Part shown: positions 1,617-41,299 of the stretch, piece after piece
Layout: every line of letters starts with the position of its first letter
Position numbering within the stretch: the first letter of the stretch is position 1
Assembly (NCBI GenBank): GCA_030390025.1
Contig: JASTWF010000323.1
Location: 372,001-436,000 of the forward strand
Direction of reading: 5' to 3'
DNA from: Squalus acanthias
Taxonomy: Eukaryota
Length of the DNA: 64,000 nucleotides
Program-made: the position numbers and the translations under genes
Notes under the pieces: generated by a model
Told to the model about the DNA's origin: nothing
The model's input: the letters and a program-made list of their open reading frames with translations, nothing else
Database searches by the model: none

Positions 1617-1693
1617 TTCTGGTGGATGGGAGATTCCCGAGACTCAGGTTCCAGACTATCGCTGCTCCATAAAGCACCCAGGCCGGTTAAACG
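1617..1693 (+). CDS. D8C domain exon (SGGWEIPETQVPDYRCSIKHPGRLN)
   Basis: ttccag|T...ACG|gtaatt; aligns with uromodulin [24 protein letters not shown]. Confidence 0.85.
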
Positions 1694-4600
1694 GTAATTT
1701 CAGACTTTATAATCTCAGATTTACATTCACTGTCCAGCACTGTTCACCACGGTTACAATATTCAATATTTACAAATGACGTTTCAGGTTCTCATCCCACC
1801 GTGGGACAGGGAGAAGTGACGAGGACAGTTTGTTTCAGCTGGGAAGTAAATCCCTGCCACGGAACCGTGGAGATAAAGATCAAAAACTGCACCAGTTACT
1901 TCGTTTATGAGTTGAAGCCGACACCCGGAATGAACTCTGCTTATTGCACAGGTACATTGAGGGGGGTGGGGCAAAGGTTAGGAACTCGGGGCGGGGGGGG
2001 GGGGCAAAGGTCAGGATCTCGGGGTGGGGTGCAAAGATCAGGAACTCGGGGCAAAGGTCAGGAACTCGGGGATGTGCAAAGGTCAGTGTCTCGTGGTTGA
2101 AAAGTCACAAATTCGGAGAGGAAAGGTCAGGAAATCGAATGTGAAAGATCACAAACTCGGAGAGGAAAGGTCAGGAACTCGGGGGTGAAAGGTAGAAATC
2201 TCGGAGAGGAAAGGTCAGGAACTCGAAGGTGGAAGATCAAACTCGGGTAGGAAAGGTCAGGAACTCGGGGCGGGTGAAGGTGAGAAATTCGGGAGGGGGC
2301 AAAGGTCAGGAACTCGGGGGGCAAAGCTCAGTAACTCGGGGGGCCAAAGGTCTGGAACGCTGAATGAAAAAGGTCAGGAATTTGGGGGGGCAAAGGTCAG
2401 TAACTCGGGTGGCCAAAGGTCAGTAACTCGGTTGTGGCAAAGGTCAGTAACTCGGGTGGCCAAAGGTTAGGATATCGGGGTGCCAAAGTTCAGTATATCG
2501 GGGGGCCAAAGGTCAGTAACTCGGGGGGACAAAGGTCAGTAACTCGGGGGGACAAAGGTCAGTAACTCCGGGGGACAAAGGTCAGTAACTCGGGGATGGC
2601 AAATATCAGGGACTCGGTGGTGGGGCAAAGGTCAGGAACTCGGAGGGGAGTTCCTGAACTCGGGGGGGATAAGTTCAGGAAATCGGAGTCAAAGATCAGA
2701 AACTCGGTTGCGGGGGGGCTGAGGTCCGAAATTGCGGAGGGGAAGGTCAGGAACTCGGCTTGGAAAGGTCATGAACACGAGTGGGCTGAGGTCAAGATCT
2801 CGGAGGTGGAGGTCAGGAACTCTGGGTGGAAAGGTCATGAACTAAGGGGGGAAAGGTCAGGAACATCGTGGGGGGCGAAGGTCAGTAAATCGGGGGTGGG
2901 CAATGGTCAGGAATTCGGGAGGGCAAAGGTCAGCAACACGGAGTTCAAAGGTCAGGAACTCGGGGGGGGCAAAGGTCAGGATCTCGGGCGGCAAAGATCA
3001 GGAACTCGGGGTTGGCAAACGTCAGGAAATCGGCGTGGAAACGTCATGAACTAGTGGGGGAAAGATTAGGGGTGTTCTACGGTCAGGTACTGGGGGTCAG
3101 AGATTGTCAGGAAATCAGGGTTGGGGAGAGAAAGTCAGGAACTCGGGGCAGGTGTTTGGATGGGTAGGATTGAAGCTCAGGAATTCGAGAGGGGGACTGA
3201 AGGTCAGGGTCACGGGTGTGTGGGTGGAGATGGAGTGATGGCCAATATATCATTCCTGAGGTGCGGTGCCCAGATCTGAACACAGTTCTCCAGATGGGGT
3301 CTTACTGGGAGAGTGTTTTTGTAACCGGGATATGGGACACTGAGGGCCCTGAACAGATATCAAAGTCCCAGACACTGACTGCTGCTCATCGACGAACACT
3401 GGGACAGTAAATGAACTGCGATGGTCCCTGTATTTAAATTACATTTCTAGAATCACCAAGGCTGGAACTTTAATTGGCACTGCGTGTTAGCGAGATAATA
3501 TTTACAGTTTGAATCCCTCCCGTGTCAGTAATGTGTCAGTATTGATTGATGCTGTGAGGGAATTTTTTGATAATGTAATCGGGCAGATGCAAAATGGTGC
3601 CATGGCAGAGGGACTTCAGTTCTGTGGAGAGACTGGTGAAGCTGGGATTCGTCTGCTTAGAGCAGAGAGGATTAAGGTAGATTTGATAGAGGTGTTCAAA
3701 ATCATGAATGGTTTTGACAGAGTGAATAAGGAGAAAAGGTTTCCAGTGGCTGAAGGGTCAGTAACCAGAGGTCACAGATTAAAGGTGATTGGAAAACGAA
3801 CCAGAGGCGACATGAACAAACATTGTTTTACACAGCGAGTTGTTGTGATCTGGATGCACTGCCTGAAAGGGCGGTGGAAGAAGGTTCAATAATAAGTTCA
3901 GAAGGGAATTTTTAAAGGGATACGATTGACAGATCTCCGCGGCAAGAGCAGGGGAGTGAATTAATTGGACAGCCCTTTCAAAGAGTCGGCACAGGCACGA
4001 TGGGTCGAAAGGCCTCCTTCTGTGCTGTATCATTCTATGATTCTATGATGTAATGTTTGTCAGATGATGCTGACAGATTGAGAACAATAGATTGTTCACA
4101 TCAGAAGCACGGATAAGATCTTTTAAAGAGCACACGAGTACATTTAGCAACATATGCAAGCTAGACTGAGTAGAGAGAGAGCGAGTTCGGAGAGTGTTTG
4201 TGTAACCAGGGCAGGGGACACTGTGAGATGCCTGACCAGATATCAGTCTCCCAGACCCTGGCTCTGGCTCACCCACTAACACTGGGACAGTAAAAGGACT
4301 GCGATGGTCTCTGTATTTAAATTAAATGTCAAGAATCAGTAAGCGTGTGTTTCGCGAAAAATTAGTGTAATCTCTACACTGGAGAGTGTTACTCTCATCC
4401 CAGGAATCTAGCTGGTGAAGCAGGGATAAACGGGACAATTTCGGGATGGCTGGTTGTCACTCGTGGAGTACCTCAAGGATCAGTGCTTGGGCCTCAGCTA
4501 TTTACAATCTATATCAATGACTTAGATGTGGCGGCTGAGTGTAATGTATCCACGTTTGCTGATGTTACAAAGGTGGGAAAGTAATTCATAGATGCATAAC

Positions 4601-7600
4601 GGCACACAAGGAGCACGTTCAGCCCATTGAATCTGTGCCGGCTCTCTGTAGAGCAATCCAGTTACACCCATTCCCCCGCTCTATCCCCGTAGTCCAGAAA
4701 GTTAATTTCCCTCAAGTGCCTATCCAATCTCCCCTTGAAAACATTGACTGTCTCCGCTTCCACCATTCCGTCGGCACTGAATTCCAGGTCATCACCACAC
4801 GCTGCGTAAAAAAAGTTTTTCCTCACATACCCTCTGTATTTCTTGCCCAAAACCTGAAATCTGTGTCCCCTAGTCCTTGTACCATCAACTAGTGGGAACA
4901 ACCTTTCCCCGTCTATCCTGTCCAAACCCGTCATAATCTTGTACACATCTATCAACTCACCCCTCAACGTCCTTTGCTCTAATGAAAACAAATCCAGCTT
5001 CTCCAAACAGCCTTGTAGCTAACATCCCTCATCCCCGGAGACATTCTGGTAAATCTACCCTGCATCCTCTCAAGGGCCTTCACATCCTTCCTAAATTGTG
5101 ATGACCAGAACTGGACGCATTATTCTATTTGTGGCTTAACTAGCGCTTTATAAAGGTTCAGCATAACTTCTCTACTTTTGTACTCAATAACTCTATTTAT
5201 GAAGCCCAAGATCCCATATGCTTTGTAAACCACTCTCTCATTATGTCCTGCCACCTTCAGGGACTTATACATATTAACTCCCAGGTCCCTCGATCCCTGC
5301 ACGCTCTTTAAAACTGTGCCATTAAGTGTATATTGCCTCTCCCTGTTCCTTCTGCCAAAATGCATCAACTCACACTTCTCTATTAAATTCCATCTGCCAC
5401 TTGTCTTCCCATTCTGCTGGCCTTTCTATGTCCTGTTTCAGTCGATTGGTATCGTCATCACTGTTTGCCACGTCCCCAAGTTTGGTTTCATCGACAAATT
5501 TAGAAATTCTACTACGTATTACAGTGTCCAGGTCATTTATAGAAATTTAATAAAAACAGTGGCCCCAGCATTGACCCTTGGGGAACACCACTGTCTACCA
5601 TCCTCCAGTCTGAAAAACAGCCATTTACCACAACTCGCTGTTTTCTGTCCGTAAGCCAATTCCTTATCCAAGCTGCCACTGGCCCACCTATTCCATGAGC
5701 CTCAATTTTGTTAACCAGCCTTCTTTGTGGTAGACAACATCCTTTGCATTCCCTTCATCAATCCTCCCTGTTACTTAAAAACAAAATAGATTTTTCAAAC
5801 AGGATCTGCCTTTTACAAATCCGTGTTCGCTTTCCTTAATTAGCTTAAACGTGTCCAAGTGCCCGTTAAATTTTTTCCTTGATTATTGTTTCTAAAACTT
5901 TACCCCCCAGTGATGTTAAAGTGACCGTCCCATAGTTACTAGGATTCTCCTTACACCCTTTCTTGTACAATGGTGTCACAATTGCCACTTTTCAATCCTG
6001 AGGCTCCTCCCCGCATCTAGGGAAAATTGAAAATTATGGCAAGCCCTTCCGCCATATCCTCCCCCAATTCCCTTAGCAACTTGGGATGCAAGCCATCTGA
6101 ACCAGTCGACTTATCCACTCTAAGCATACCCAGCCTTTCTAGTACATCCTGTCTCTCAATTTTTACCCCTTCCATTGCATCTACCGTTTCCACTTCTAAC
6201 GCTGTTTTGTCAGCATCCACCTCCTTAGCAAACACCAATTCAACGTACTCATTTACTATTCTCGCCTTGCCCTGCGCCTCCAAGCATATATCACCTTCTT
6301 TGTCTCCAATAGGCCCCACCCCGCCTCTTACACCCACTTACTGTTTGCATGCCGGTAGACGATTTTTGGTTCCCTTTTATGTTAACCGCCATTCTACTCT
6401 CATGTTCTCTCTTTGCCACTCTTATTTTCATCTTCGCATCCCCTCTCAACTTATTGTAAGCTGTGAGGAGGAAGCAAGGAGGCTGCAAAGGGATATAGAC
6501 CGGTTAAGTGATTGAGCAAGTTGGAGGCAGATGTAGCATAATGTCAGGAAATGTGAAATTATACATTTTGATAGGAAGAATGGAAAAACAGCACAAGGTG
6601 AGAGATTAATAAATGTTGGTATTCAGAGGGATTTGGGGGTCCTTGTACATGAATCACAGAAAGTTAAATTGCAAGTACAGCCAGCAATTATGAGGGTATG
6701 TTTGCCTTGACTGCAGGAGGGTTGTAGTATAAGAGTAAGGAAGCCTTGCAGCAATTATATAGGGCTCTGTTGAGACCACAACTGTACTGTGCACAGTGTT
6801 GGTCTCCTTATCCAGGGAAGGGTATACTTACCTCAGAGGGGTTGCAACGAATGTTCTCTAGATTGATTCCAGTGAAGAAAGTGTGTCCTATGAGGAGAAA
6901 TTAAGTTGAATGGGCCCATATTCTCTGAAGTTTAGAAGAATCAGAGGTGATCTCATTGAAACGTGTAAAATTCTTAAAGGGCCTGACAGGGTAGATGCTG
7001 AGAGGCTGTTGTTCCCTTGCTGTAGAGTCTTAAACTAGGGGTCATAGTCTCAGGATAAGGGGTCGGCCATTTAGGACTGTGATGAGGAGAATTGTTTTCA
7101 CTCAGAGGGTTGTGAATCTTTGGAATGCTCTACCCCAAAGGGCTGTTGTGCTCAGTCGATGAATATTTTCAAGGCTGAGATTGATAGATATTTGGGCACT
7201 AAGGGAACCAAGGTAAATGGGGCTAGGGTGGGATGGTGGAGTTGAAGTAGAAGATCAGCCATGATCTTATTGCGGAGCAGGCTCGAGGGGCCAAAACGCC
7301 TACTCCTGCTCCTATTTTTTGTGTTCTAATAAACACAGACCGTTCCCCAATACTGACCATAACATGCTCTGACCCTCCCCAGTTCCATTCTGCTTTCTGA
7401 ACCATGGCTAAGAAAATAAATTAAAGCTAGGTTTAAGTGAAAGGAGGTAGCTTCCAATGTTGCCAGAAAAAGGGGTCAGCCTGAGGATTGGGATCTTTTT
7501 AGAATTCAGCAAAGGTGGAACAAGAAATTGATACGGAAAGTGAAAATGGAATATGAGCACAAACTAGCGAAAAAAATAAAAACGGATTGTAAAAGCTTCT

Positions 7601-10600
7601 GTAGGTATGTGAAAAGGAAAAGATTGCCGAAGGTAAATGTAGGTCATTTAGAGTCAGAGACGGGAGAATTTATAATGGGGAATGAGAAAATGGTAGGGAA
7701 ATTAAATAAATAGTTTGTTTCTTTCTTCACGGAGGAAGACACAAAAAACCTCCCAGAAATACGAGAAAACCAAGGGTGTGGCGAGAATGAGGATCTTAAA
7801 GAAATTATTAATAAAAAAAAATGCTAGCAAAATTAATGGGACTAAAAGTCGATAAATCCCAAGGACCGGATGACCTACATCGGAGGGTTTTGAATGAGGT
7901 GGCCATTGGGATAGTAGTCGCATTGGTTGCCATCTTCCAAAATTCTATAGATTCTGGAATGGTTCCTGCAGTTTGGTGGATAGCAAATTTAACCCCGCTA
8001 TTTAAGAAAGGAGGGAGAGAGAAAACGGGGAACTACAGACCTGTTAGCCTCACATCAGTAGATGGGAAATTGCTGGAATCTATTATAAAATTTGCAGTAA
8101 CTGGGCAATTAGAAACTAAGAGTAAGATTGGGCAGAGTCAACATGGATTTATGAAAGGGAAGTCCTGTTTGACAAACCTGTTGGAGTTCTTTGAGGATGT
8201 AGCTAGTGGAGTAGACAAAGGGGAACCGGTAGATGTGTTGTATTTGGATTTTCAGAAGGGCTTCGATAAGATCCCACACAAGAGGTTGGTGAACAAAGTT
8301 AGGGCACATGGAATTGGGGGTAATATACTAGCTTTATTTTGCTTAACAGACAGAAAACAAAGAGTAGGGATAAAAGGTTTTTTTTCGGGATGGCAGGCTG
8401 TGACTAGTGGGGTACCGCAAGGATCGGTGCTTGGGCCCCAGCTATTCACATTCTATATCAATGATTTGGATGACGGGACAAAATGTAACATTTCCAAATT
8501 TGCTGATGATTCAAAGCTAGATGTCAGTGTCAGCTATGAGGAGGATGTGAAGTGGCTTCATGGGGATCTCGACAGGCTCAGTGAGTGGGCGAGATCATGG
8601 CAGATGGATTATGGTGTGGATAAATGTGAAGTTATCCACTTTGGTAGAAAAAAGAGAAAGTCAGAGTATTTCCTACATGTTGAAAGTTTGGGGAATGCAG
8701 ATGTTCAAATGGACCTGGCTGTCCTTGTACATGAGTCACTGAAAGTGAATGTGCAGGAGCAGAAATCCATAAGGAACGCAAATGGTTTGCTGACCTCGAT
8801 TACAAGAGGATTTGAGTACAGAAGTAAATAAGTTTTACTCCAATTATATAGGGCCTTGGTGAGACCACACCTAGAGTCCTGTGTACAATGTTGGTCTCCT
8901 TATCTAAGGAAGGATATACTAGCCATAGTGGGAGTGCAACAAAGGTTCACGAGATTGATTCCTGGGATGATGGGACAGTCGAATGAGAAGAGAGTGAGTT
9001 AGGAACTCGGGTAGGATGAAAAGGTTAGGAACTCGGGTGGGATGGGAAAGGTCAGATCTCGGGGGGGCAAAGCTCAGGAACTGGCGGGGGTCAAAGTTCA
9101 GGGACTCTTGGGGGGCAAAGATTAGGAACACGGGGGGCAAATATCAGGAACTCGGACCAGGACAAAGATCAGGAACTCGTGTGGAAGAGTCAGGAGCTCG
9201 GGGGTCAAAGGTCAAGAACTGGGGCAATAGTCATGAACACGGGTGGGGACAAAGATCAGGAACTCGGGGGCCAAAGGTTAGGAGCTCCTGGGGGGCAGAG
9301 GCCAGGAACTCATAGGCGGGGGGCGGGGGGGGTGTTCAGGATCTCGGAGGGGAGGGGCTAAGGTTGGAATTCGGGGCGCGTCACAGGTCAGGAACTCGTG
9401 GATGAAAGGTCAAGATCTCGTGGGTCAACGGTCAGAAACTCGGGAGGGGCAAAGGTAAGGGCCTTGGGGCGGGGCAATGGTCAGGAACTCGGGGCAAACG
9501 TCAAGTGCTCGGTGGGGTGCAAAGTTCAGGAACTTGGGAGGAAAAGATCAGGAACTCGGACGGGGAAAAGGTCAGGAACTCGCGGGGCGGGGTGGAAATC
9601 AGGAACTCGGTGGGGGGTGGAAAGGTCAATATCTCGGGATGGGTTAAGATCAGGAACTGTGGAGTGCAAAAGTCAGGAACTCGGTGGGGGAGGAGAGAAG
9701 ATCACGAATTTGGGCGGTGCTGGTGGGAGGGATGGTTAGGAGCTTGGGCAAGGGGAGAAGTTCAGGAACTCGGGAGAGGGGAGAAAAGGTCAGGAACTCG
9801 GTGGGGGGATGAGGGCACGGAAGGTCAGGAAATTGGTCAGGTGCAGGAGGTGAAGAACTTGGGTTGGGGAAATAGGTCAGGAATTTGGTTGGGGAGTGGG
9901 AAAAGGGTTCTGGAGATTTGGCCGGGGTGAAAAGGACAGGAACTTGGGTGAGGATGGGGAAGGAGGTCAGGAACTTGGGTGGGGGTGGGGGAGGAGGTTA
10001 GGAATTTCGGTGGGGGTGGGGGAGGAGGTCAGGAACTTGGGTGAGGGTGGCGAGGGGGTCAGGAAATTCGGCGCTGGGGGCAGGAACATGTTTGCGGGTG
10101 GGAGAAGGTCTTAACCCGCGAGGGTGAGCCCTGTCTGTTCCAAGTGAGCTCTGTTCTGTCTGGAGTAGATTGTCAGAATGTCTCGAATTAAACTTTGCAA
10201 AGTAACTGTTTAAGTAGGCAGGGAGAAACTAATTAAACATTCCAGGGACTCTGCTGGGTGTGCCTTGTCCTCCAAGTGGACCAATGAGCAATCAGGACTT
10301 GTCATTCAAGAGGTCCAATCAGACAGTGTTGCGAATAAACACGCCACGTTGAAATAATCCAGAAGTGTGACTCTAGGATGTCCCGTGTTATCAACAGAAA
10401 TAAGAAAGTTACACGCCCTGTTGTCAGAGACACAATGCATAAAGGAACTGAAACACAAAGTGTACATTTCACCAAAGCTATAGGGAGCTCAATCAGACGC
10501 TATTCTCCGTGTCTATCGGTCACTCTGTTCCCTGCGGTGCCCACTGATCGCGATAGACCCCCAGTGTAGCGCTGGCCACCGCACGCTCCCTCTCCAGGCT

Positions 10601-13600
10601 TTCTGGGTCACAATGAATAGGATTGGGTGATTCTGGGTTTTATAAAGACTGGTGCCGGACATTCTCCGGACTCGATTACCAGCCTGATGACCTGTCCTGG
10701 TGTTCTCCACTCTGCAATCTCCCGTGTCTCTCTTCATTTATTATAGATCCCAAGACCGTCCCAAATCAGGAACCCGAGGAACATTCGACCCGTGAATCAG
10801 CTGACCGCAGATCATCTATTCCACTGGTGTCTACAGCCGCAGGTATCTGCCTTGTGGAGTCCATTCTAAACAGACTGCTCTCCGAATGTAACTGCAGCAA
10901 TCCTCAGACCCTCAGATGGATCCAATCCCTTACTGAGGGGTGTGGGATGGACTGTCTGACATGAGTGGGATGTGGAGACTGAGGGGAATTGGAGGCAGCA
11001 TCTGACGGAAGTGGAATGCAGTGCCTGAGGAAGCGGGATGTAGTGAATGAGGGGAGTGTGATGAAGTGAATGAGGGGAGTGTGATGTAGTGAATGAGGGG
11101 AGTGTGATGTAGGGAATGATGGGAGAGTGATGTAGGGAATGAGGGGAGTGTGATGTAGTAAATGAGGGGAGTGTGATGTAGTGAATGAGGGGAGTGAGAT
11201 GTAGTGAATGAGGGGAGTGTGATGTAGTGAATGAGGGGAGTGAGTTGTAGTGAATGAGGGGAGAGTGATGTAGTGAATGATGGGAGTATGATGTAGTGAA
11301 TGAGGGGAGTGAGATGTAGTGAATGAAGGGAGTGTGATGTAGTGAATGAGGGGAGTGAGATGTAGTGAATGAGGGGAGAGTGATGTAGAGAATGATGGGA
11401 GTATGATGTAGTGAATTAGGGGAGTGTGATGTAGTGAATGAGGGGAGTGTGATGTAGTGAATGTGGGGAGTGAGATGTAGTGAATGAGGGGAGTGTGATG
11501 TAGGGAATGAGGGGAGTGTGATGTAGGGAATGAGGGGAGTGTGATGTAGTAAATGAGGGGAGTGTGATGTAGTGAATGAGGGGAGTGTGATGTAGTGAAT
11601 GAGGGGAGTGTGATGAATTGAATGAGGGGAGTGTGATGTAGTGAATGAGGGGAGTGGGATGCAGTTAATTGTGGCAGTGTGCTGCAGTGACTGAGGCGAG
11701 TGGGACGCAGTGACTGAGGGGAATGGGATGCAGTGAATTAGGGAAGTGTGTTTTCGTGACTGAGGGGAGTGTGATGTAGTGAATGAGGGGAATGGGATGC
11801 AGTTAATTATGGCAGTGTGCTGCAGTGACTGAGGACAGTGGGACGCAGTGAAAGAGGGGAGTGGGATGCAGTGAATTAGGGAAGTGTGTTACAGTGACTG
11901 AGGGGAGTGGATTGAGGAGAATGAGGGAGTGGATTTAATGGCTGAGGGGAGTGGAATTGGATGATTCTGGGTTTTATAAATACATTCTCCGGACTCCAGT
12001 ACCAGCCTGATGACCTGTTCTGGTGTTGTCCACACTGCACTCTCCCCTGTCTCTCTTCCTTTATTGCAGATCCAGAGACATCTCCAACTCAAGAACCCGA
12101 GGAACAATCGACTCGTAAATCAGCTGACCGCACATCCACTACTCCAGCGGGGTCTGCAGACTCAGGTATCTGCCTTTTGTATTCCATTCTAATCAGATTT
12201 CTCACACAGTGTATTTGCTGAAATCCTCAGTACTGACAATTCGTCCATCTTCTGAGCGGAACGTGATGTAGAGACGGAGCGGTGCTGGATGAGCAGATTG
12301 TTTGAAGTGGGATAAGGACACTGAGGGGAGTGCGCTGTACTGAATGTGGAGTGCAGGACCAGGTGACTGAGGGAATTGGATGAAGATTCTGAGTGGAGTG
12401 TGTTGAGTTTTCTAAGTGAAGTGGGTTGAGGATTCTGAGGAGACTGCGGTGAGCAGCGTGAGTGGTGTGTATTAAGGAAACTGAGGGGATAAGAATGAGC
12501 TGTCTGAAGGGAGTGGGATGCAGCGACAGAGGGGAGTGGGATGCAGCAATTGTGTGCGTGAGAATTAGTGATTGAGGGGAGTGGGCTGCAGTGACTGAGG
12601 AGAGTGCGATTAGGTGTCCGAGGGGAGTGAGATGCAGTAACTGAGAGGTGTGCGATGTATTGACTGGGAGTTGTGGGATGTGGCGGCTGGGATGAGTGTG
12701 ATTCATTGACTGAGGAAATGCAGTGACTGAGGGGAGTGGGATGCAGTGACTGTGCGGTGTGAGTACAGAGACTGAGGGGTGTGAGATGCAGTCACTGAGG
12801 GGAGTGGGATGCAGTGACTGAGGGGAGTGGAGGTAGTTACTGAGGAAAATAGGATTGGATGATTAGGCGTTTTATAAAGACTGGTGTCTGACATTTTCTG
12901 GTCTCTAGTACCAGTCTGATGACCTATGATGGTCTTCTCCTCTCTGCACTCTCCCATGTCTCTCTTCCTTTGTTACAGATCCAGAGACATTCCCAACTCA
13001 CGAACTCGAGGACCAATCGACTCGAGAATCCGCTGAACGTTCATCCTCTCTCCCAGCGGCGTCTGCAACCTCAGGTATCTGCCTTGTGGGGTACATTGTA
13101 CACAGACTGTTCACCCAATGTAACTGCTGGAATCCTCAGTCCCTCAGCTTCATTCACTATCTTGTTGAGGGGAGTGGGATGTAATGAAGTATGGGTGTGG
13201 GATGCGCGGACTGTGGGAAGTGGGACAAGGAGACTGAGCGAAGTTTGATGTAGTGATTGAGGGTAGTGGGATGCAGTGACTCAGGTGTGTTGTACCAGGA
13301 GACTGAGGGAGTGGGATGAAGGTTCTTAGTGTAATATGATGAGGTTTCTAAGGGAAGTGGGTTGATGAGTCTAAGGGGGTCGGATGAGAACACTGAAGGG
13401 AGTGGGATGGGGATACTGAATGGAGTGGAAAGAGGTGACTGAGGGAAGTGGCAAGAAGAAAGTGAGTGTAGTGGTAGTTAGTGACTGAGTGAAGAGAGCT
13501 GAGTGGACTGAAGAGAGTGGGACGCAGTCACTGGGGGAATTGGGATGCAGTGACTGAGGGAAATGGGTTGCAGTGACTGAGGTTTCTGGGATGCAGTAAC

Positions 13601-16600
13601 TGACAGGTGTGCGATATATTGACTGAGAGGTGTGGGACGCAGTAACTAAGGGGAGTGGGATTGGATGATTTTGCGTTTTATAAAGACTGGTGTCTGACAG
13701 TCTCCGGGCTCTGGTACACTCCTGATGACCTGTTCTGGTTGTCCCAGCTCTGCACTCTCCCATGCTTCTCTTACTTTATTGCAGATCCTGAGACATCCCC
13801 AACTCAGGAACCCGAGGAACAAACTAATCGCGAATCCGTTGATCGTTTATCCACTATTCCAGCCGTGTCTGCAGCCTCAGGTAACTGCCTTGTAGTTTCT
13901 ATTCTGCACAGATTGCTTAATAAATGTAGCTGCAGAAATCCTCACTCCTGACAATTCATCCATCTCTTACTGAGCGGATTCGGATGTAGTGACGCAGGGG
14001 TGCAGGATGAGCAGATTGTCGGAAGTGGGATGGTGACACTGAGCGGAGTGGGATGCAGTGAAGGGCGGAGTGTGATGCAGTGATCGACGGGAATATAATA
14101 TAGTGACTGAGGGGAGTGGGATGGAATGAATTATGGCAGTGGGTTGCAGTGACTGAGAGGAGTGCGCTGCAGTGACTGAGGCGAGTGGGCTGCAGTGACT
14201 GAGGCGAGTGGGCTGCAGTGACTGAGGGGAGTGGGCTGCAGTGACTGAGGCGAGTGGAATGCCGTGACTGAGGTAGGTGTGGGCTGCAGTGACTGAGGGG
14301 AGTGGGATAAAGTGACTGAGGGGAGTGGAATGCCGTGACTGACGGACGTGGGATATAATGGTTGATGGAGTGGAATTGGATTTTTCTGGGTTTTATAAAG
14401 ATATTCTCCGGACTCCAGTACCAGCCTAATGACCAGTTCTGATGTTGTCCACTCTGCACTCTCCCACGTCTCGCTCTCTTTATTACAGATCCAGAGACAT
14501 CCCCAACTCAGGAATCTGAGGAACATTCGACTCGTGAATCCGCTGACCGTACATCTACTATTCCAGCGGGGTATGCCACCTCAGGTATCTGTCTAGTGGG
14601 TTCCATTCTACACAGATTGCTCTCCAAATATAGCTGCTGAAATCCTCAGTCCTGACAATTCAGCCATCTCTTACTGAGCGGAGTGGGATGTAGTGACGGA
14701 GGGGTGCAGGATGAGCAGACTGTTTGAAGTGGGATGAAGATACTGAGCGAAGTGGGATGTAGTGACTGAGTGGTGCGGGACCAGGAGACTAAGGGGAGTT
14801 GGTTAAAAATTCTGAGTGGAGTGTGATGAGTTGTCTAAGGGAAGTGGTGTGAGGATTCTGAGGGGAGTACGATGAGCAGAGTGAGTGGATTGGAATTAGG
14901 AGTCTGAGGGGCGTAGAATGCAGTGTCTGAGGTGAGTGGGATGAGGAGTGCGAGGGGAGTTGGAGCACTGACTGAGAGGTGTGCGATGTATTAACTGGAT
15001 GGTGTCGGGATGGGGCGGCTGAGAGGATTGTGATGCTTTAACTGAGGAGATTGAAATGCAGTGAATGAGCGATATGGAATACAGAGACTGAGCGGCGTGA
15101 GATACTGTAACTGAGGGGAGAGGGATGCAGTAACTGAGGAGAGTGGGATGCAGTGACTGAGGGGAGTATGATGCAGTAACTGTGGGGAGTGGAAGGCAGT
15201 CACTTAGGGGAGTGTGATGCAGTAACTGAGGGGAGTGGGAGGCAGTTACTCAGCGTAATAGGATTGGATGCTTATGCGTTTTATAAAGACTGGTGTCTGA
15301 CATTTTCTGGGCTCTAGTACAAGCCTGATGACCTATTCTGTACTTCTCCACTCTGCACTCTCCCTTGTCTCTCTTCCTTTATTACAGATCCAAAGACATC
15401 CCCAACTCACGAACTCAATGATCAATCAACTCGCGAATCCGCTGACCGTACATCCACTATTCAAGTGGGGTCTGCAACTTCAGGTCTGGTTTTTGTGGGG
15501 TTCCTTCTACACAGACTGTTCACCCAATGTAACTGCTGAAATCCTTAGTCCCCCAGATTCATCCAGTCTATTACTGAGGGGAGTGGGATGCAATGACTGT
15601 GGGAAGTGGGATGAGGAGACTCAGGGGAGAGGGATGCAGTGACTGAGGGGGAGTACGTTTTCGTGACTTAGGGAGTTGGTTGTAGTGCAGCAGGTGCTGG
15701 ATGACTATCGGTTATTTAAAGTCTGGAGTCTGGCATTCTCCGGACTCTTGTATCAGCCTGATGACCTGTTCGGGTCATCCCCAGTCCTTCACTCTCCAAT
15801 GATTCGTGTCCTTTATTATAGATCAAGAGACAATCCTGACTCAAGAACCGGAGGAACAATCATCTCAAGAATCCAATGAGAAATCGTCCTCTATCCCAGC
15901 GGGGTCTACAGCCTCAGGTATCAGTCTGGCGGGGTTCCTTCAAAATGACAATTCACCCAATATGACTCCTGAAATGCTCATCCTGAGAATCACACAGTCT
16001 CGAATGAGACCTTTCTCAAAGAATAGATTTCCCGCACTATATACAAGCTTCCTCGGATTTATCATTTCAAATCAGGGTGCGCATTCAGGAAATGTGACAG
16101 AACCGGAAGTGACTGAGAGAAACAATGGTGGAGTCTGTGACCTTTGGGGAAGGGGCAGTACAGATGGAGCTTGTAATACCAGGAGGGTTTCTTTCAGACA
16201 TTGGGTGACTGAACTGGAGGCGTGGATTTAACAGCACAGAAGCAGTCCATTCGGCCCATCTGATCCATGCTAGTGTTTATGCACCATACAAGTCTCCTCC
16301 CACCCTACTTCATCTCACCCTATCAGCACAACTTCGTAGACATTTCTCCCTCACGAGTTTATCTAGCTTCCCCTTAAATACATCCATGATATTCGACTCA
16401 ACTACTCCTTGTAGCGAGTTTCACATGCTCACCCGTCTCTGGATAAAGGAGTTTCTCGTGAATTCACTTTAAGATATATTAGCGACTATCTTATGTTATT
16501 GACCCCTAATTTTGGATACCTCCACAAATGGAAACATCCTCACTAGGTCTACCTCTCAAAGCCTTCATAATTTTAAAGACTTCTATCATGTCCCCCCTCA

Positions 16601-19600
16601 GCCTTCTCTTGTCTAGATAAAGTAAGCCCCAGCTTTTTTAATCTTTCCTGATAGTTGTACCCCCTCAGTTCTCGGAACAGCCTTGGAAACCTGGTTGTTG
16701 CACTTTCTCCAGTGCCTCTATAACCTTGTTCATATTATGGAGACGTTAACTGTGCGTAGTACTCCAAATGTGATCTACCAATGGTATATGGAGATCAGAA
16801 CAGTGCACCATACTCCAATTGTGATCTAACCAAGGTATATGGAGACCAGAACAGTGCACACTGCTCCAAGTTTGGTCTAACTAAGCTAAAAGGAGAGTAG
16901 AACTGTGCATCCTACTCCAAGTATTGTATAACCAAAGTATATGGAGACCAGAACTGTGCACAATGCTCCAGGTGTGGTCTAACCAACGTATATGGAGATC
17001 AGAACTGAGCAGAGTACTCCAAGTTGGGCTTAACCAAGGTTCTATACAAATTTAACATTACTTCCCTGCTTTCCATTTCGATTATTCTAGAAATGAACCC
17101 CAGTGCTTTGTTTGAAATGCGATTTACAACACGGAATTAGAGCAGATATATTTGACTTGGACTAAACCTTGAACTAAGATCCATTGTTCCCACATCAAAA
17201 AATCTGAGACAGAGGCACCTTATGAAGGGACAGTTTCAAAATGAATGTCCCCAGACACAATCTGAGGGAATAAGTCCACCGGAAACATTCTTGATATGAC
17301 GATCCACGAACTGAGATGTTATATTTTGTGCATATGGATATTCGCATATTTAAGGCATGCTATGTTAACAGGAAACAAATTGGAGAATAGAAGGATCCCA
17401 TGATTGAGTGCTTGTCACTATGTGTTCCACATGGCAGTATCGGTAATAGGTTGTCAGCTTTTTCCTACCACTCTTTCTTGCTGTCTCTCTCTCTTCCTGG
17501 CTCTCTCTCTCTCTCTGTTTCTTTCTCACTCCCTCTCTTTCTCTCTCTGTCTCTCTTGATCATTATCTGTCTGTCACCCTCTGTCTATCTTTCTCTGTCT
17601 CTCTATCTCTCCCACTCCCTGTCTCTCCCTCTTTCTCGATTTATTTGTCTCTTTCTCTCTAGCTCAATCTCTCTCTCTTTCTGTCCATTTCTTTGTCTCT
17701 CTCCCTTCGTCTCTCTCTCTGTCTCTTTTTCTGTCTCTCTCTGTCTCCCTCTCTTTCGCAACCTATCTCGCTTTTTCTCACTTTCTCTCAATCTGTCTCC
17801 CTTTCTCCCCGTCTTTATCTTACGTTACCAGTCTTTATTTCTCTCCGTCATTCTCTGTCTCTCTCTGTGTATCAGTCGCTACCTTTCTCCCTCCTTGTCA
17901 CACTCTTTTTATCTCTCTCTCCCTGTATTTCTTTCTCTTTCCCCAGTCTCTCTCTCTCTCTCCATATAGGTATCTTTCTCTCTCTCTATCTATCTCTGTC
18001 TCTCCCACTCACTCATTCTGTTTCTCTCTCTTTTGTTCTCTCTCTCTGGCTCTCTGTCACTATCTTCACTCTTTCTCTCTCTGTTTCCAACTCTCTCTCT
18101 CTCTCTGTCTCTGTAACTCATTATCACTCTGTCTGTGTCTCTCTATATATTTACCTGCCTCTCTCTGCCTATTGATCCTTCAGTCCTGAATTGTCTCTTG
18201 TCTCTGTGCCCATCAGTTCAATGTCCGGCCCGGTGCTTTGAGAGACCCGGACCGAGCAGGAAGATCCACTCTTGATCCAGTGGTCTTTCTCCATCCTCCA
18301 ATTCCCATGTGGCTGATCTTTCATTACAGATTCGGGGAAGACGACACGTCCTGCAACCAAGGGAGAGTCGTCATCAGAAGCTGAGTGCAAACCTTCAGAG
18401 GAGGGACATTCAAGGCCAGGTATCAGTCGGCTTCTGGTAGGAACCATCCAATCAGACTCTCTCAGAGTCCACTCCCGGAAACATTCAGTCACTGACTCCA
18501 TCCTCGGACATTCAGTTATTGAACCTCCCAAATATCCTGCTTTATAATCTGACTGCTCAGTCCCAGTTATCAGGGCAAGTCTCTCCCAATATTAAAAACA
18601 TAGAATAGAACAGGCCATTCGGCCCAACTGGTCCATGCCAGTGTTTATACTCCATACCAGCCTCCTCCCACCTCTCTTCATCTAACCTCATCAACATATC
18701 CTTCTTTTCCCCTCTCCCATTGTGTTTATCTAGTTTCCCCTTAAATGCATCTTTACTATTCACCTCAACCATTCCCTTTCGTAGCGTGTTCCACATTCTT
18801 AACACTCTCTGGGTAAAGACATTTCTCCTGAATTCCCTATTGGATTTATTAGTCACTATCTTATATTTATGGCACCTAGTTTTGCACGGTCCCACAAATG
18901 GAAAAATCTTCTTTACATTTATCGTATCGAACCCTCTTCAGAATTTTAAAGATATTTACAAGCTAACCGCTCAGCCTGATCTTTTCTAGAGAAAAGAGCC
19001 CAGCCTGTTCAGTTTTTCTTTGAATTCCCTTCCCCTCCCCTTTACTGTGCTTCTATTGGCTCTCAGGAGTCAGGAGCCGGGGTTGGGGCTTCATTCACTG
19101 CCCCTCCCCAGTGCCCTGTGAATGAGGAGCTGTGGGGCTGCCTTCTCGAGCTGCTGTGGGGAATTGTGGTGTTCGGGTCAGGGGGGTGTTGTGAAAGCAG
19201 CGACTGGGCCTGGAATTGTTCGCACAGACCCACGTTCCCAGTTTCAGCTTCCAGAACAGAAGGTCCTCGGTTGGACCGGCACTCCGGGTTTGCCCCACTC
19301 CATGCCGCCTCCATGTAACCGGTTGATATATCTGCCTCTAAATCTGCCCGGGGGAGCTGGGGGCGGTTGGGCGTATCGGCTGAATGCTTGTCCTCTTAAT
19401 GTTCCAGGGGTACTGAAATTGTCGAAGGAGGAGTGGGAGAAGGTCAGTGCCGAGGTCCAGGTGATGTACATCGGCAAAAACAAACTGGAAACTCCCGCGG
19501 AAAAGGAAGTCTATCTCCGGCAGGTGAGGGATTTATTCTTCATTAATTCTCGGGGTGTGCCGGCACTGATAGACCAACCCCAGTTGGCACAGATTGACCA

Positions 19601-20290
19601 ACACCAGTTGGCATTGATTGAAAAACACCTTTCGGCATTGATTGATCATCCCTAGTTGGCATTGATTGACCAACCCCAGTTATTATTGATTGATCATCTC
19701 CAGATGGCATTGATTGACCATCCCTCGTTAGCATTGATTGACTAATCCCAGTTGGCATTGATTGACCATCACCAGTTCCGATTGATTGACCAGGCCCATT
19801 TGGACTGGTGTTGAGGGGAGGGGACTCCCCTGGTGTTAAGGGGAGTTGATTCCCCTGGACCTAAGGGGGAGGGAATCCTCTGGTGTTAAGGGGAGTGGAG
19901 TTACCTGGTGTTAAGGGGAGTGGAGTTCCCTGGTGTTAAGGGGAGGTGATTGCCCTGGACTTAAGCGGGGAGGGGGGGAATCCCCTGGTGTTAAGGGGAG
20001 TGGAGTCACCTGGTGTTAAGGGGAGGGAATTGCCCTGGTGTTCAGGGGAGGTGATTGCCCTGGTGTTAAGGGGGAGGGGATTCCCTGGTGTTAGGGACTC
20101 GGTGATGTTTCTTGAGAGCCCCTGTTGAGGTGCGGTTTAACTGCGTCCCCTCTCTATCGTGCCCCAACGTGTCATTCTCGCCAATTCCCAGGTACAAGAC
20201 ATGCTGAAAGACCACCTCCCGTACAAGAAATACACGCTGCAGTTTCACGGTGAAAAGGCGGATAAAGCTGGAAAGAAGAAACAGAAATGA
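1617..20290 (+). CDS. Multi-exon gene (5' end outside window): uromodulin/GP2-like D8C domain + exon-repeat mucin-like stalk + short C-terminal domain; about 405 aa encoded in window
   Basis: Exons 1617-1693, 1787-1951, 10747-10842, 12070-12165, 12979-13074, 13785-13880, 14489-14584, 15388-15483, 15822-15917, 18330-18419, 19408-19523, 20192-20290; all have AG/GT boundaries, compatible phases and no stops; the splice creates AYCT-DP as at the end of the uromodulin D8C domain. Confidence 0.8.
1787..1951 (+). CDS. D8C domain exon (GSHPTVGQGEVTRTVCFSWEVNPCHGTVEIKIKNCTSYFVYELKPTPGMNSAYCT)
   Basis: tttcag|GT...ACAG|gtacat, 165 nt, phase 1-1; aligns with uromodulin [56 protein letters not shown]. 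Confidence 0.9.
1965..3210. repeat. G-rich minisatellite, ~23-bp unit (aaaggtcaggaactcggggggc)
   Basis: Tandem degenerate copies; same unit as 8999-10110. Confidence 0.9.
3590..4048 (+). mobile_element. CR1 LINE 3' fragment
   Basis: DLIEVFKIMNGFDRV..TRGHRLKV..FTQRVV ORF2 C-terminus; attctatg tail. Confidence 0.85.
4440..7328 (+). mobile_element. CR1 LINE RT-to-3' fragment, split by a nested antisense CR1
   Basis: GVPQGSVLGPQLFTIYINDLD..FADV at 4465-4580 resumes at 6456 (VSCEEEARRLQRDIDRL); tail cctactcctgctcctatt at ~7300-7328. Confidence 0.85.
4585..6455 (-). mobile_element. CR1 LINE (5'-truncated, degenerate) nested in another CR1
   Basis: Minus ORFs 4662-5006, 5120-5368 and 6017-6337 are CR1 ORF2 segments; gtaa duplicated at 4581-4584 and 6456-6459. 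Confidence 0.85.
7395..8998 (+). mobile_element. CR1 LINE ORF2 (reverse transcriptase) fragment
   Basis: ORF 7821-8831 with NYRPVSLTS, YLDFQKGFDKIPH, GVPQGSVLGP, FADD; 3' end replaced by minisatellite. Confidence 0.9.
8999..10110. repeat. G-rich minisatellite, ~23-bp unit (aggtcaggaactcggg core)
   Basis: Same family as 1965-3210, degenerating rightwards. Confidence 0.85.
10747..10842 (+). CDS. Stalk exon 1 (DPKTVPNQEPEEHSTRESADRRSSIPLVSTAA)
   Basis: ttatag|AT...CAG|gtatct, 96 nt, phase 1-1, open. Confidence 0.85.
11030..11880. repeat. 23-bp minisatellite (tgatgtagtgaatgaggggagtg / gatgcagtgactgaggggagtgg) in stalk-exon intron
   Basis: Tandem copies; variants recur between the stalk cassettes up to ~15660. 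Confidence 0.9.
12070..12165 (+). CDS. Stalk exon 2 (DPETSPTQEPEEQSTRKSADRTSTTPAGSADS)
   Basis: ttgcag|AT...CAG|gtatct, 96 nt, open. Confidence 0.85.
12979..13074 (+). CDS. Stalk exon 3 (DPETFPTHELEDQSTRESAERSSSLPAASATS)
   Basis: ttacag|AT...CAG|gtatct, 96 nt, open. Confidence 0.85.
13785..13880 (+). CDS. Stalk exon 4 (DPETSPTQEPEEQTNRESVDRLSTIPAVSAAS)
   Basis: ttgcag|AT...CAG|gtaact, 96 nt, open. Confidence 0.85.
14489..14584 (+). CDS. Stalk exon 5 (DPETSPTQESEEHSTRESADRTSTIPAGYATS)
   Basis: ttacag|AT...CAG|gtatct, 96 nt, open. Confidence 0.85.
15388..15483 (+). CDS. Stalk exon 6 (DPKTSPTHELNDQSTRESADRTSTIQVGSATS)
   Basis: ttacag|AT...CAG|gtctgg, 96 nt, open; weaker donor. Confidence 0.8.
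15822..15917 (+). CDS. Stalk exon 7 (DQETILTQEPEEQSSQESNEKSSSIPAGSTAS)
   Basis: ttatag|AT...CAG|gtatca, 96 nt, open. Confidence 0.85.
16232..17110 (-). mobile_element. Old CR1 LINE 3' fragment containing an internal 51-bp x6 tandem amplification
   Basis: ccattcggcccatc tail motif at ~16250; 16736-17041 repeats the LVRPHLEYCVQFWSP-coding segment six times. Confidence 0.8.
17470..18170. repeat. (CT)n-rich low-complexity tract
   Basis: Degenerate ctctctgt repeats. Confidence 0.9.
18330..18419 (+). CDS. Diverged stalk exon 8 (DSGKTTRPATKGESSSEAECKPSEEGHSRP)
   Basis: attacag|AT...CAG|gtatcagtc, 90 nt, phase 1-1; donor context identical to stalk exon 7. Confidence 0.7.
18595..19020 (-). mobile_element. 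CR1 LINE 3' fragment
   Basis: Minus ORF KTRCHKYKI..FRRNVFTQRVLRMWNTL; tail catagaatagaacaggccattcggccc. Confidence 0.8.
19408..19523 (+). CDS. Penultimate coding exon (GVLKLSKEEWEKVSAEVQVMYIGKNKLETPAEKEVYLRQ)
   Basis: gttccag|GG...CAG|gtgagg, phase 1 to 0, open, non-repetitive protein-like sequence. Confidence 0.75.
19560..19800. repeat. 24-bp minisatellite (ccagttggcattgattgaccaacc)
   Basis: About 10 tandem copies in an intron. Confidence 0.85.
19805..20095. repeat. 25-bp minisatellite (tggtgttaaggggagtggagttccc)
   Basis: Tandem copies in an intron. Confidence 0.85.
20192..20290 (+). CDS. Terminal coding exon (VQDMLKDHLPYKKYTLQFHGEKADKAGKKKQK*)
   Basis: ttcccag|GTA..., phase 0, TGA at 20288-20290. 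Confidence 0.75.
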   Translation, partial: VQDMLKDHLPYKKYTLQFHGEKADKAGKKKQK

Positions 20291-20649
20291 CCTGGGATGT
20301 GTGTGGTGGGGGTTTGGGGTGCGTGGGTTCAGGTGATGAGGTGGGGGTGGGATGAGTGGGGTGAGAGGAGGGTTGGAATGAGTAGGGTCAGGCGGTGGGG
20401 TCAGTGAGGTCAGGGAATGTGGTCAGGAGGTGGGGTGAGTTGGGTTCAGGGGGTGGGCTGAGTGCGGTGTGTGGGATGAGTTGGGTGAGGGAGTAAGTGG
20501 GGTGAGGGGGTTGGCTGAGTGGGGTGTGTGGAGAGGGGCGATGTGAGTGTGTGAGTGGGGTGAGGTTGTGGGCTGAGTGGGTTGTGTGATGTGGGGTGTA
20601 TCTCATTGAATTGTTCCCAATGGACAGTGTCCAGGAGCGGTGGGGTGCG

Positions 20650-21075
20650 GTGTTTAAAAGGGATTTAAAATCGGGCAAAGGGTGTCTAAAAGCAGTTTAA
20701 TAAGGAGATTAAAAGTTGTTTAAAAAGAGTTTAATAAGGGGTTTTAAAGGTTTTTAAAAGGTGTTTATCAAAGGGTTTAGAAGCTGTTTAAATGCAGTTT
20801 AATAAGGGGCTAAACTGGTTTTTAAAATGAATTTCTTTATCGGTTTAGAAGCTGTTTGAACGGAATTTAATAAGGTGTTTCTAAGGTTTTTAAAAGGAGT
20901 TTAATTAAGGAGTTTAGATGATGTTTAAAAGGAGTTTAATAATGGGTTTAAAGGGTGTTTAATGTAGGATTTATATGCGTTTAAAATGTTTTTAAGGGGA
21001 TTTTAAAGGTTTTTAAATGGGTTTCAAAAAGTCTGTAAACGTGGTTTTGAAAAGGTTTTCTTAGGAAAGGGTTAA
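20650..21075. repeat. Degenerate tttaaaagg/tttaataagg-rich tandem repeat
   Basis: Recurrent gtttaataagggg and tttaaaaggag motifs. Confidence 0.6.
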
Positions 21076-21274
21076 TCAGATTGCCCTGAGGTGTGTGAAT
21101 GTAATACTGGTGATGGGGTTACTTTGTATTGTAGTAATGTCAGCTTTGAGCCTTTGTTTGTTGAGTAGGGAAGTAAGATTCTTCAGTGGGAATATCTTCA
21201 CACAGTGAGAAACAGACGGCAATTCGAAGGTTGTAACCACCTGTTTAATGAGAGAAGTTAATCGGAGACACAGA

Positions 21275-21442
21275 AAGATAGAAAGAAAGACTTGTATCTG
21301 TATCGTGCCTCAGGATGTCCAAAGCGCTTTACAGCCAATGAAGTACTTTTTGAAGTGTAGTCACAGTTGTAATGTAGGAAACACAGCAGCCCAATTACAC
21401 ACAGCAAGCTCCCACCAACAGCGATGTGTAAATGACCAGATA
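21275..21442 (-). mobile_element. Deu-domain SINE (SacSINE1/AmnSINE1-like) 3' part
   Basis: Minus strand ttatctggtcatt..gtgggagcttgctgtg..tttcctacattacaac..cacttcaaaaagtacttcattggctgtaaagcgctttgg..gtctttctttct matches the recalled DeuSINE consensus. Confidence 0.7.
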
Positions 21443-21490
21443 AGAGGGGAGAGAAAGATCCCACTCATTAGAACGGAGGCCTTGAAGCCT

Positions 21491-21890
21491 TACAACAACA
21501 ACTTGCATTTATACAGCGCCTTTAACGTAGCAAAACGTCCCAAGGTGCTTCACAGGAGCCGAAATCAAGCACAATTTGATACCGAGCCACATAAGGAGAT
21601 ATTAGGACAGGTTTTACCGAACAACTTACAGGAGGAGATGTGAAGAGGTTTAGGGAGGGAATTGCAGAGCTTAGGGCCGAGGCAGCTGAGGGCACGGCCG
21701 CCAATGGTGGAGTGGTTCAAATTGGGGGGTGCGTAAGAGGACAGAAATGGAGGAATGCAGCGATCTCGGAGGGGCTGGAAGAAGTTACAGAGAAAGTGAG
21801 GGGTCGAGGACATGGAGGGATTTTCAAACAAGGTTGAGTTTTTTTTTGAATCAAGCCGTTGCTGGACCGGGAGCCAATGTAGATCAGATA
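21491..21890 (-). mobile_element. L2-clade LINE 3' fragment
   Basis: Minus ORF LSDLHWLPVQQRLD...GGRALSCLGPKLCNSLPKPL; (ttg)n tail. Confidence 0.75.
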
Positions 21891-21899
21891 AGAACCTGC

Positions 21900-22331
21900 C
21901 TGAGAAATACCAGAGCCTGGAACCGGGCAATTAGGGAGGGTGAGTCAAGTAAAGAGAGTGAGAGATCTGTAGATACAAGGACATAATTTAAATCACTGTT
22001 CACTGAAACATTATCCAGGACACCTCTTGATGTACCTTTAAAACAGGCCAATTGTCATGTAGAAGGAGGAAGGAGAAGGTATAAAAAGTGGGTGCTGGAA
22101 CTAATACCTTGGATTCAGTTAAGATCTGATCAATCTGTATAGCGAGCTCGGGACTGTAACACGTTTGATTCTCAGGCTAAAACTCGCAAGGTTTTGTCGG
22201 AAGCTGTGGCTGTTGTGTACAATTATTTTATGTTTAATAAATGTGTGACATCTGACATTCAGTGTTGTTAATCCTATTGATTAAAAGAGTGAATTATAAG
22301 TAAGCACACACGCATTTACCCATTCGCTAAC
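21900..22331 (+). mobile_element. Candidate solo LTR (or 3' UTR end of the D8C gene)
   Basis: TATAAAA at ~22080, AATAAA at 22236, ends ...ctaaca at 22331 where a minisatellite starts; 5' boundary unclear. Confidence 0.3.
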
Positions 22332-24680: not shown

Positions 24681-25215
24681 GACGTGACCTCACCGCGTAG
24701 ACTTCTCCACCAACATGGCCGCCCCGAATAGCTCCACAGGCCCCGCCCCCTCTCCACGGTCACGGGCTCGGTTGACCCGCTATCCCAGAGTGAAGCGCCT
24801 CCCTGAGCCACCGTTCCAATGGGGCATCCGCGCACCCGACCCGTGATGGACAGGTGGGCGAACCAACGAAATGGGTGCTGCTATTCATGACCAAGTCAGC
24901 GCGTCTCTGCTCCACTGAGACCCCGCCACCCGCCGGCACTGTGATGGACAGCGGAGTCAAACAATGGCTGAGGGGCGCTGCCGCGCTTTGACCAATCGGA
25001 GCGCCACCTTGCTGTTCAATTCCTGTCTGGCATTATTGCGTCATTCCCCGACAAACGTTTGAGAGTCATTGCCCGACCAGCGTCATTGCGTCATTTCGCT
25101 TTGACAGACGGTCGAGTGAGGCGCTGGGGGCGCTGGAACCAATGAGAAACCAGAGGGGAATAAGCGCTGCTTAAAGCCAAGCCGACCTCGCTGAATTATG
25201 GTTATGCAAATGTTT
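24678..25215. promoter_or_regulatory. CpG-rich promoter-like region
   Basis: CCAAT at ~24816, ~24992, ~25139; tgcgtca twice (~25038, ~25088); tgatggacag twice; YY1-like caacatggc 24711; GC box ccccgcccc; octamer ATGCAAAT ~25204. Confidence 0.55.
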
Positions 25216-29014: not shown

Positions 29015-29150
29015 TTCAGGTCCGCCGATTGTGCGGTGAATGTGAGCTCAGTGCGTCTCACCGGAAGTGACCTCATCCCGCAGAGGTGATCGCCAACATG
29101 GCCCCCACCGGCAACACGTTCCTGTCCGCCATCTTGTCAATACCCCCCGC
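29015..29150. promoter_or_regulatory. ETS (CCGGAAGTG) + YY1-like elements, paralogous to 24678-24727
   Basis: ccggaagtgacctcat..ccaacatggccccc..ccgccatcttg versus ccggacgtgacctcac..ccaacatggccgcc. Confidence 0.45.
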
Positions 29151-35786: not shown

Positions 35787-35861
35787 GGTTCCGTGGCTTA
35801 GCTGGTCGAAACGCCTATTCAGTAAATAGGGGATTACTGGGTTCGAATCCCAGCGGGGCCT
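35787..35861 (+). tRNA. tRNA-Thr(AGT)-like gene, probably pseudogene
   Basis: GGTTCCGTGGCTTAGCTGGT..CCTAT TC AGT AA ATAGG..CTGGGTTCGAATCCCAGCGGGGCCT matches vertebrate Thr-AGT; U33 is C, D-stem mismatch, +1 nt in variable loop; T-rich terminator follows. Confidence 0.85.
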
Positions 35862-36123
35862 TTCTTTTCTCTTTATGACCCTCCAGAGGATCGTTGATTC
35901 TCGTGTCAAAGGGCCACAATCCTTTTAAATGTAACTGCGGCTGCAGTAATTTCCATTCTGGATTAAGGCCTCAGTCGCTGCGGGGCGTGGGGCGAATTCC
36001 ACCGCTGTCATAATTTCTGGCGGTGCTTATTTTGGCCTCTTCACTAAATATCCATCTTTTCTAAGCAGTGCTGTGCGTGGCTTTGCTGTGAACAGAGCAG
36101 AGTAGTCACCGTGAATGTGTGGC

Positions 36124-36190
36124 GCTGTGATCATATAATGATTAGTGCTCTGCGTTGTGGCCGCAGCAACTTCGAGTCCGAGTCACGGCA
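36124..36190 (+). pseudogene. tRNA-His(GTG) pseudogene
   Basis: Matches GCCGTGATCGTATAGTGGTTAGTACTCTGCGTTGTGGCCGCAGCAAC..TTCGAATCCGAGTCACGGCA but the 5' T-stem strand (CTCGG) is deleted. Confidence 0.85.
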
Positions 36191-41235: not shown

Positions 41236-41299
41236 TATCCTCCTCCGCGCTTCATTTGCGATATTTTTTCCGCGCTCTCCGCCGTTTTACTAACATTTT

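Follow-up and report, generated by a model that had tools for sequence, protein, structure and literature searches.

An elasmobranch gene family with a uromodulin-type head, an acidic stalk and a conserved tail, represented in Squalus acanthias by a partly covered gene

The 64-kb window of Squalus acanthias DNA (the whole stretch that was analysed, part of contig JASTWF010000323.1) contains a gene in which a uromodulin-type head is followed by an acidic stalk and a small conserved tail, and in which both the ZP module and a membrane anchor are absent. It is very probably a real spliced gene of this ZP-less, anchor-less architecture. Judged from predicted proteins, it belongs to an elasmobranch family with a uromodulin-type head, an acidic stalk and neither ZP nor anchor.

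Gene structure, transcripts and stalk

The window gene lies on the + strand from 1617 to 20290. A script test of the boundaries gave 12 exons encoding a partial protein of 405 residues, with GT-AG at every intron and compatible phases; the introns are in phase 1 from the head through the 90-nt exon and in phase 0 ahead of the last exon. The TGA stop codon at 20288-20290 follows the tail. The window holds the 3' four-fifths of the gene, the leader and the first half of the head being encoded outside it. The original prediction had likewise placed the 5' exons outside, and no head-like exon was detected in bases 1-1616 with the boundary script and the family profiles. The features are as follows.

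1617-1693, +, head exon A, middle of the D10C/D8C-type domain (GP2 7p6r residues 71-95; family profile 23.7 bits)
1694-1786, +, head intron, 93 nt, in-frame, GT-AG (its removal restores colinearity with GP2 and 35 family heads)
1787-1951, +, head exon B, C-terminal D10C/D8C part, ends in AYCT, phase 1 (PF23283 32.9 bits; 64-76% identity to 14 elasmobranch proteins)
10747-10842, +, stalk exon 1, 96 nt, phase 1-1 (boundary script and stalk DNA profile, as for the next six)
12070-12165, +, stalk exon 2, 96 nt
12979-13074, +, stalk exon 3, 96 nt
13785-13880, +, stalk exon 4, 96 nt
14489-14584, +, stalk exon 5, 96 nt
15388-15483, +, stalk exon 6, 96 nt
15822-15917, +, stalk exon 7, 96 nt
18330-18419, +, linker exon, 90 nt, a diverged stalk unit (stalk profile weak, E 0.002; matches relative P0018; 3' half fits contig X3-18)
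19408-19523, +, tail exon 1, type A: helix, strand and start of a long helix (3 matches at 61-65% identity; contig X3-18)
20192-20290, +, tail exon 2 and stop codon (tblastn to relative P0017 E 2e-8; contig X3-18 by depth arithmetic)
20291-22260, +, likely 3' UTR with AATAAA at 22236 (signal; near-identical contigs, probably RNA, on 20595-21214)

The stretch 1694-1786 could also be read as an 'insertion' of about 30 residues in the head; this was rejected and the 93-nt GT-AG intron preferred, since the flanks align separately to GP2 and to the family profile. Being in-frame, this intron may be retained in some transcripts. By the family profiles, the 64-kb window has a single head and a single tail; several paralogs per species are present in protein databases.

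Data from four runs of one study, probably RNA, cover part of 18250-22300, and the last exons of the window gene are covered in all four. Within that stretch the intron bins and 20426-20561 lack cover, to which no weight was given. Contig X3-18, 310 nt long and with a depth of 7.03, matches 19404-19520 in all but one letter. When it is taken to cover 18372-18415, 19404-19520 and 20189-20292, depth arithmetic reproduces six bin depths exactly, and the small offsets of this placement equal the letters shared between exon ends and acceptors. The last three exons are spliced to each other: X3-18, with its joints read from depth, fits a span over both last splices and the stop codon. A further 43 letters of the contig, beyond 20292, are unplaced; at that point the 3' UTR may have an intron, or a repeat allele may be present. 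Intron and UTR stretches are matched by contigs at about 90% identity, which suggests a second similar gene besides the window gene. At position 19490 the X2 and X4 contigs read C for A (Glu to Asp) and those of X1 and X3 match the window; the difference is either an allele or a paralog.

The stalk is made of seven acidic Ser/Thr units of 32 residues, one per 96-nt phase-1 exon. Ser and Thr make up 33% of these 224 residues, of which 46 are acidic and 17 basic. When the window was scanned with a DNA profile built on the stalk exon, exactly seven strong copies and the weaker 90-nt exon came up, and no more; the seven differ from each other by 23% on average. The stalk of the S. acanthias copy, at 253 residues, is longer than that of most relatives. 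The introns between the stalk exons (11037-15650) each carry the same 23-nt minisatellite and about 60 nt upstream of every stalk exon are conserved; the stalk exon was therefore duplicated together with its flanks.

Head, tail and relatives

In mammalian UMOD and GP2 the D8C/D10C domain acts as a decoy for bacterial FimH and lies upstream of a ZP module. The original prediction had recognised the C-terminal half of such a domain, spliced to the stalk with the junction of uromodulin, and this was borne out. With the intron left in, the half head scored 32.9 bits against PF23283 (cut-off 27). It also matched the GP2 decoy module 7p6r (E 9e-8), a match split by the 93-nt intron: GP2 residues 71-95 and 93-150 align to its two flanks. 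The junction in the window protein reads AYCT/DP, the same as in uromodulin, and GP2 is described as having a splice boundary at the same T/D (PMC8930769, available text). In the same source the decoy module is defined as a beta-hairpin plus D10C with disulfides C1-C8, C2-C9, C3-C6, C4-C10 and C5-C7. The high-mannose glycan that it displays sits at UMOD N275 or GP2 N65; the hairpin in GP2 and UMOD is thought to keep this glycan high-mannose.

The window head keeps C4, C5, C7, C8 and C10, and has Met at C9; C1 and C2 are encoded outside the window. At the C3 and C6 positions it has non-Cys residues, as do 35 family heads, and in the relatives the loop ahead of C2 holds a further Cys pair (33 and 32 of the 35 heads). 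The position equivalent to UMOD N275 is Glu, so that high-mannose site is lacking. A sequon two residues past C1, the GP2 N65 position, occurs in 19/35 family heads (for the S. acanthias copy the codon is outside the window); it is Asp in white shark P0016 and sawshark P0018, which are full-length, have the same tail type and have an ordinary head. Just before C8, the disulfide partner of C1, a sequon is present in 32/35 family heads and in the window protein, and the window head has another at the GP2 N122/UMOD N232 position. In P0016 and P0018 the head begins right after the leader, at residue 17-19, and the family therefore has no beta-hairpin; linkers between heads are short in the multi-head relatives. 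With the C3-C6 pair, the hairpin and N275 missing, the head is of D10C type but falls outside the decoy module under this definition. The decoy role put forward earlier as a possibility was not supported in its mammalian, FimH-directed form, given the missing hairpin, the Glu at N275 and the lack of an N65-equivalent site in P0016 and P0018.

Among 21 heads under 90% identity, the sequence shows a conserved core alternating with several highly variable patches. The model of full-length P0018 is poor (mean pLDDT 42.7); at E<=0.001 this low-confidence model matched only GP2 and uromodulin structures (12 rows).

The tail of the window protein comprises about 60 residues and is of type A, one of two tail types (A and B) in the family. 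Along the spliced model, hydropathy over 19 residues peaks at 0.35, and over the final 25 residues it averages -1.73. Neither a ZP module nor a transmembrane or GPI-like segment was found in the window protein, the latter two being judged by hydropathy only, which agrees with the absence of ZP, helix and GPI signal predicted from the first reading. The tail was also said to be hydrophilic and Lys-rich. Hydrophilic it is in the window protein, but the basic end is no family trait, being acidic in the white shark and sevengill models.

On its sequence and predicted fold, the tail is an unnamed conserved alpha/beta module without a match outside the family in sequence, Pfam and fold searches, and the view that the C-terminal module is novel gains support, as it is conserved in the relatives and matches no Pfam family. 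A HMMER search with the tail exon gave 3 matches (61-65% identity) among 1.84 billion representatives, and a word-based search with this exon as sole query gave none. The tail profile returned 18 rows, 17 of them elasmobranch; the other, a fungal TPR protein at E 0.04, was dropped as chance. Pfam, run on nine tails, yielded no family, SEA-like included, that matched more than one of them. Against PDB sequences the best E was 0.1. In the model of the P0018 tail (pLDDT 70, pTM 0.46) a short helix and a strand are followed by a long helix and a second strand; with a tail model Foldseek found nothing at E<=0.001 and a wide fold search nothing at Z>=5 (best Z 3.9 among 48,161 chains), its weak rows including cation-transporter C-terminal domains and tautomerases. 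The ESM Atlas gave, as a lead only, one unnamed chordate cluster of 225 residues (0.80 and 0.76). Types A and B align marginally (hhalign E 0.019). A type B-like tail match at 17222-17266 (E 0.47) was rejected, as the type B exon profiles had no match there. The tail may resemble modules at the C-terminus of teleost C-type lectin and NIDO-like proteins.

With cluster members added to the search matches, the family set numbers 37 predicted proteins, and 10 species of sharks and rays are represented; these are automatic models, many of them isoforms or near-identical. A search with head exon B, in which no selection was made on downstream parts, returned 14 candidates, all elasmobranch (sharks and skates, 64-76% identity) and none with ZP. 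Relatives with an ordinary head scored 37-147 bits against PF23283. They carry one to three heads and a stalk of 0 to 283 residues, and ZP or EGF families matched none of the 37, in keeping with the ZP-less, anchor-less, variable-stalk family of cartilaginous fish that had been proposed. The joining of D8C to ZP exons, which the original prediction named as the contrary outcome, was looked for in these relatives and seen in 0/37. A downstream hydropathy peak above 1.6 occurs in 1/37. Leader-peptide motifs, scored as a hydrophobic pattern, are present in 22/37 relatives, and leader, head and tail occur together in 18/37; from these leader motifs, the family proteins are probably secreted.

P0016 and P0018 have the same full order of parts as the window protein. 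The part order, the 32-residue stalk unit and the type A tail are shared by the RefSeq/UniRef models XP_041038350.1 (Carcharodon, 'OIT3-like'), UniRef100_UPI00398F14D9 (Pristiophorus), XP_067836996.1 (Heptranchias) and XP_032880858.1 (Amblyraja). Compared with these, the S. acanthias copy is longer-stalked than most and lacks a conserved Trp, C9 and both tail Cys. Type A forms one cluster in each of 8 species, with tail identities to the window protein of 47-63% in sharks and 28-30% in skates. In the type A tree skates and sharks part with 100/100 support, and few other branches are resolved; the window head groups with the sevengill and sawshark heads (88/83, below the firm-support mark of the tool). 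The type A relative P0033 (Scyliorhinus torazame) has many extra Cys and a head too diverged for Pfam; on this example, head drift in type A may not be confined to the S. acanthias lineage. No description of the family was found in the literature searched, its proteins being known as automatic models under names borrowed by similarity. The available text of a shark skin-mucus proteomics study (PMC10707392) names no such protein, and its reference database may lack them.

With the GP2/uromodulin decoy module (PDB 7P6R/S/T, 7PFP, 7Q3N) the window protein has the D10C-type head and the T/D junction in common. Unlike GP2 and uromodulin, the family lacks the beta-hairpin, C3-C6, EGF, ZP and GPI, and has a stalk and tail instead. 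OIT3/LZP and VWDE continue into EGF/ZP or VWD/EGF domains. None of those downstream domains matches any of the 37 relatives. OIT3/LZP and VWDE nevertheless resemble the shark family in having D10C near the N-terminus of a secreted protein, and are linked to other roles (PMC8930769, available text). The closest described relatives are the zebrafish omcins (omc1-15), termed teleost-specific in the accessible part of PMC11415648: like the shark family, these are fish D10C proteins with a variable number of heads, and they lie in lineage-specific gene clusters. As described there, Omc5, a multi-D10C protein whose loss lowers resistance to bacteria, differs in keeping EGF IV, ZP and a predicted GPI anchor; this comparison excludes the short omcins 2 and 8-11.

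The S. acanthias copy, origin and function

Several residues of the S. acanthias copy depart from the family. Codon 1684-1686 encodes Arg in place of the Trp found in 35/35 family heads. This Trp also aligns with a Trp of GP2 and uromodulin (UMOD position 230 by counting along chain 6zs5), and human UMOD Trp230Arg is reported to segregate with uromodulin kidney disease in one family (PMC3482064, available text). At columns at least 85% conserved the window head differs at three. In the tail, codon 19434-19436 is changed from Cys to Trp and codon 20222-20224 from Cys to Tyr; the relatives keep these Cys in 8/8 and 7/7 cases, the eighth model ending early. The Trp change and both tail Cys changes are each one base away from the family residue. 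C2 and C9 are both absent in 4/21 heads, and one of them is absent in 3/21. Among the seven stalk exons pN/pS is 0.73.

Given the Arg at an invariant Trp, with its human disease equivalent, and the replacement of both tail Cys, the copy may be a transcribed but degenerating member of a functional family, in which the head may misfold and the tail disulfide is lost. The loss of C9, the single-base nature of the Trp and Cys changes and the pN/pS value point the same way. However, the frame and all splice sites of the 12 exons are intact, and the last exons are covered in the four runs; if substitution were random, seven stalk units free of stops would have a chance of about 0.05. The two tail Cys may have been lost as a tolerated pair, and the changes may be assembly or allele errors; the relatives, for their part, usually pair loss of C9 with loss of C2. 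We consider degeneration of this copy a minority possibility, one that is independent of the best explanation for the family and compatible with it. The copy is a natural analogue of Trp230Arg, and for functional work the white shark and sawshark relatives are better.

The gene is best explained as a member of a multicopy elasmobranch family with the following plan: a leader, encoded beyond the window, precedes one or more D10C-type heads; then come an extended acidic Ser/Thr/Pro stalk, which grew as a 96-nt phase-1 exon was duplicated, and a small alpha/beta tail. This plan would have originated by exon shuffling at the phase-1 T/D junction, the point at which GP2 and uromodulin run into EGF and ZP. 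The protein would be released as a soluble glycoprotein to mucus, gut, kidney or another body fluid, with the stalk spacing the head from the tail. The head could bind microbial surface molecules through variable loops or an N-glycan, and so block adhesion or clump microbes as uromodulin, GP2 and the omcins do, without ZP filaments; the tail might supply avidity or tethering in their place. Taken whole, this explanation stands for us at an even balance. The functional reading, drawn from GP2, uromodulin and omc5 and from the expansion and head variability of the family, makes a soluble anti-adhesion or microbe-clumping function plausible by analogy, a little short of an even chance. The role given to the tail is tentative. 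More speculative, and rather doubtful, is the wider proposal that sharks and rays possess an undescribed, expanded family of soluble proteins for innate recognition. Here the variable D10C heads would bind, the tail would replace ZP as multimerising or tethering unit, and type A would be an old low-copy founder lineage common to skates and sharks.

It is very improbable that the model joins parts of separate transcripts and that the head really continues into ZP or membrane exons. The join is read from genomic DNA across an 8.8-kb, repeat-rich intron, which leaves room for such an error; the splice signals and phases nevertheless agree, the same head-stalk junction is predicted in the relatives, none of the 37 has ZP, and P0016 and P0018 have the same order of parts. 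We therefore infer the head-to-stalk splice from these signals. A LINE-type reverse transcriptase frame (7815-8831, +) sits within this intron.

A non-immune secreted matrix or mucus protein, serving lubrication, hydration, egg-case or gland secretion, or ion or mineral binding, with a head used as in OIT3 or VWDE, would suit the acidic, Ser/Thr-rich stalk (33% Ser+Thr, 46 acidic against 17 basic in 224 residues), the other roles of D10C in those two proteins (PMC8930769, in part) and the absence of decoy features. We judge it unlikely, as copy-number expansion and patchy head variability suit recognition better than structure, and teleost omcins protect against bacteria (PMC11415648, in part). 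Less likely still is a strict glycan decoy for FimH-like fimbrial lectins, with a GP2-like high-mannose glycan near C1: the sequons at the N65 position and before C8 speak for it, but there is no hairpin ahead of the head, the N275 position is Glu, and Asp takes the N65 position in P0016 and P0018, whose tails are of the same type as in the window protein. The ZP core of GP2 bears further high-mannose sites (PMC12212870, available text); these are impossible in the shark family, which has no ZP core. The omc5 evidence itself concerns a ZP and GPI protein, which counts against its transfer to the family when soluble recognition is preferred.

Uromodulin, GP2 and omc5 are antibacterial D10C proteins and also ZP proteins, and the shark family is D10C without ZP. 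It thus lets one test D10C alone, as a stand for a glycan or as a binding domain with variable surfaces. Its small unnamed domain is a further subject for structural work, and the family is a candidate part of shark mucosal defence.

Other features of the window

Besides the frame in the head-to-stalk intron, LINE-type reverse transcriptase frames (PF00078) are present at 41564-43342 (+), 53580-55319 (-) and 44949-45824 (-); two LINE frames are open for nearly 600 codons, which suggests young insertions. By eye, 39700-44800 looks like a decayed retroelement into which the LINE at 41.7-43.4 kb is inserted; Pfam matched none of seven short frames within it. A low-scoring tRNA-Thr(AGT)-like gene lies at 35787-35861 (+), and tRNA-like relics were seen by eye near 36120-36195, 38710-38780 and 39330-39420. 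An open frame of 311 residues at 49725-50663 (-) matches the rhodopsin family of GPCRs (PF00001, 65.5 bits), likely with a short upstream exon beyond an acceptor near 50640. A GC-rich stretch with CCAAT-like boxes at 24700-25200, after a long C-rich minisatellite, is possibly where another gene has its promoter or first exon; near 29040-29150 the motif recurs in similar form.
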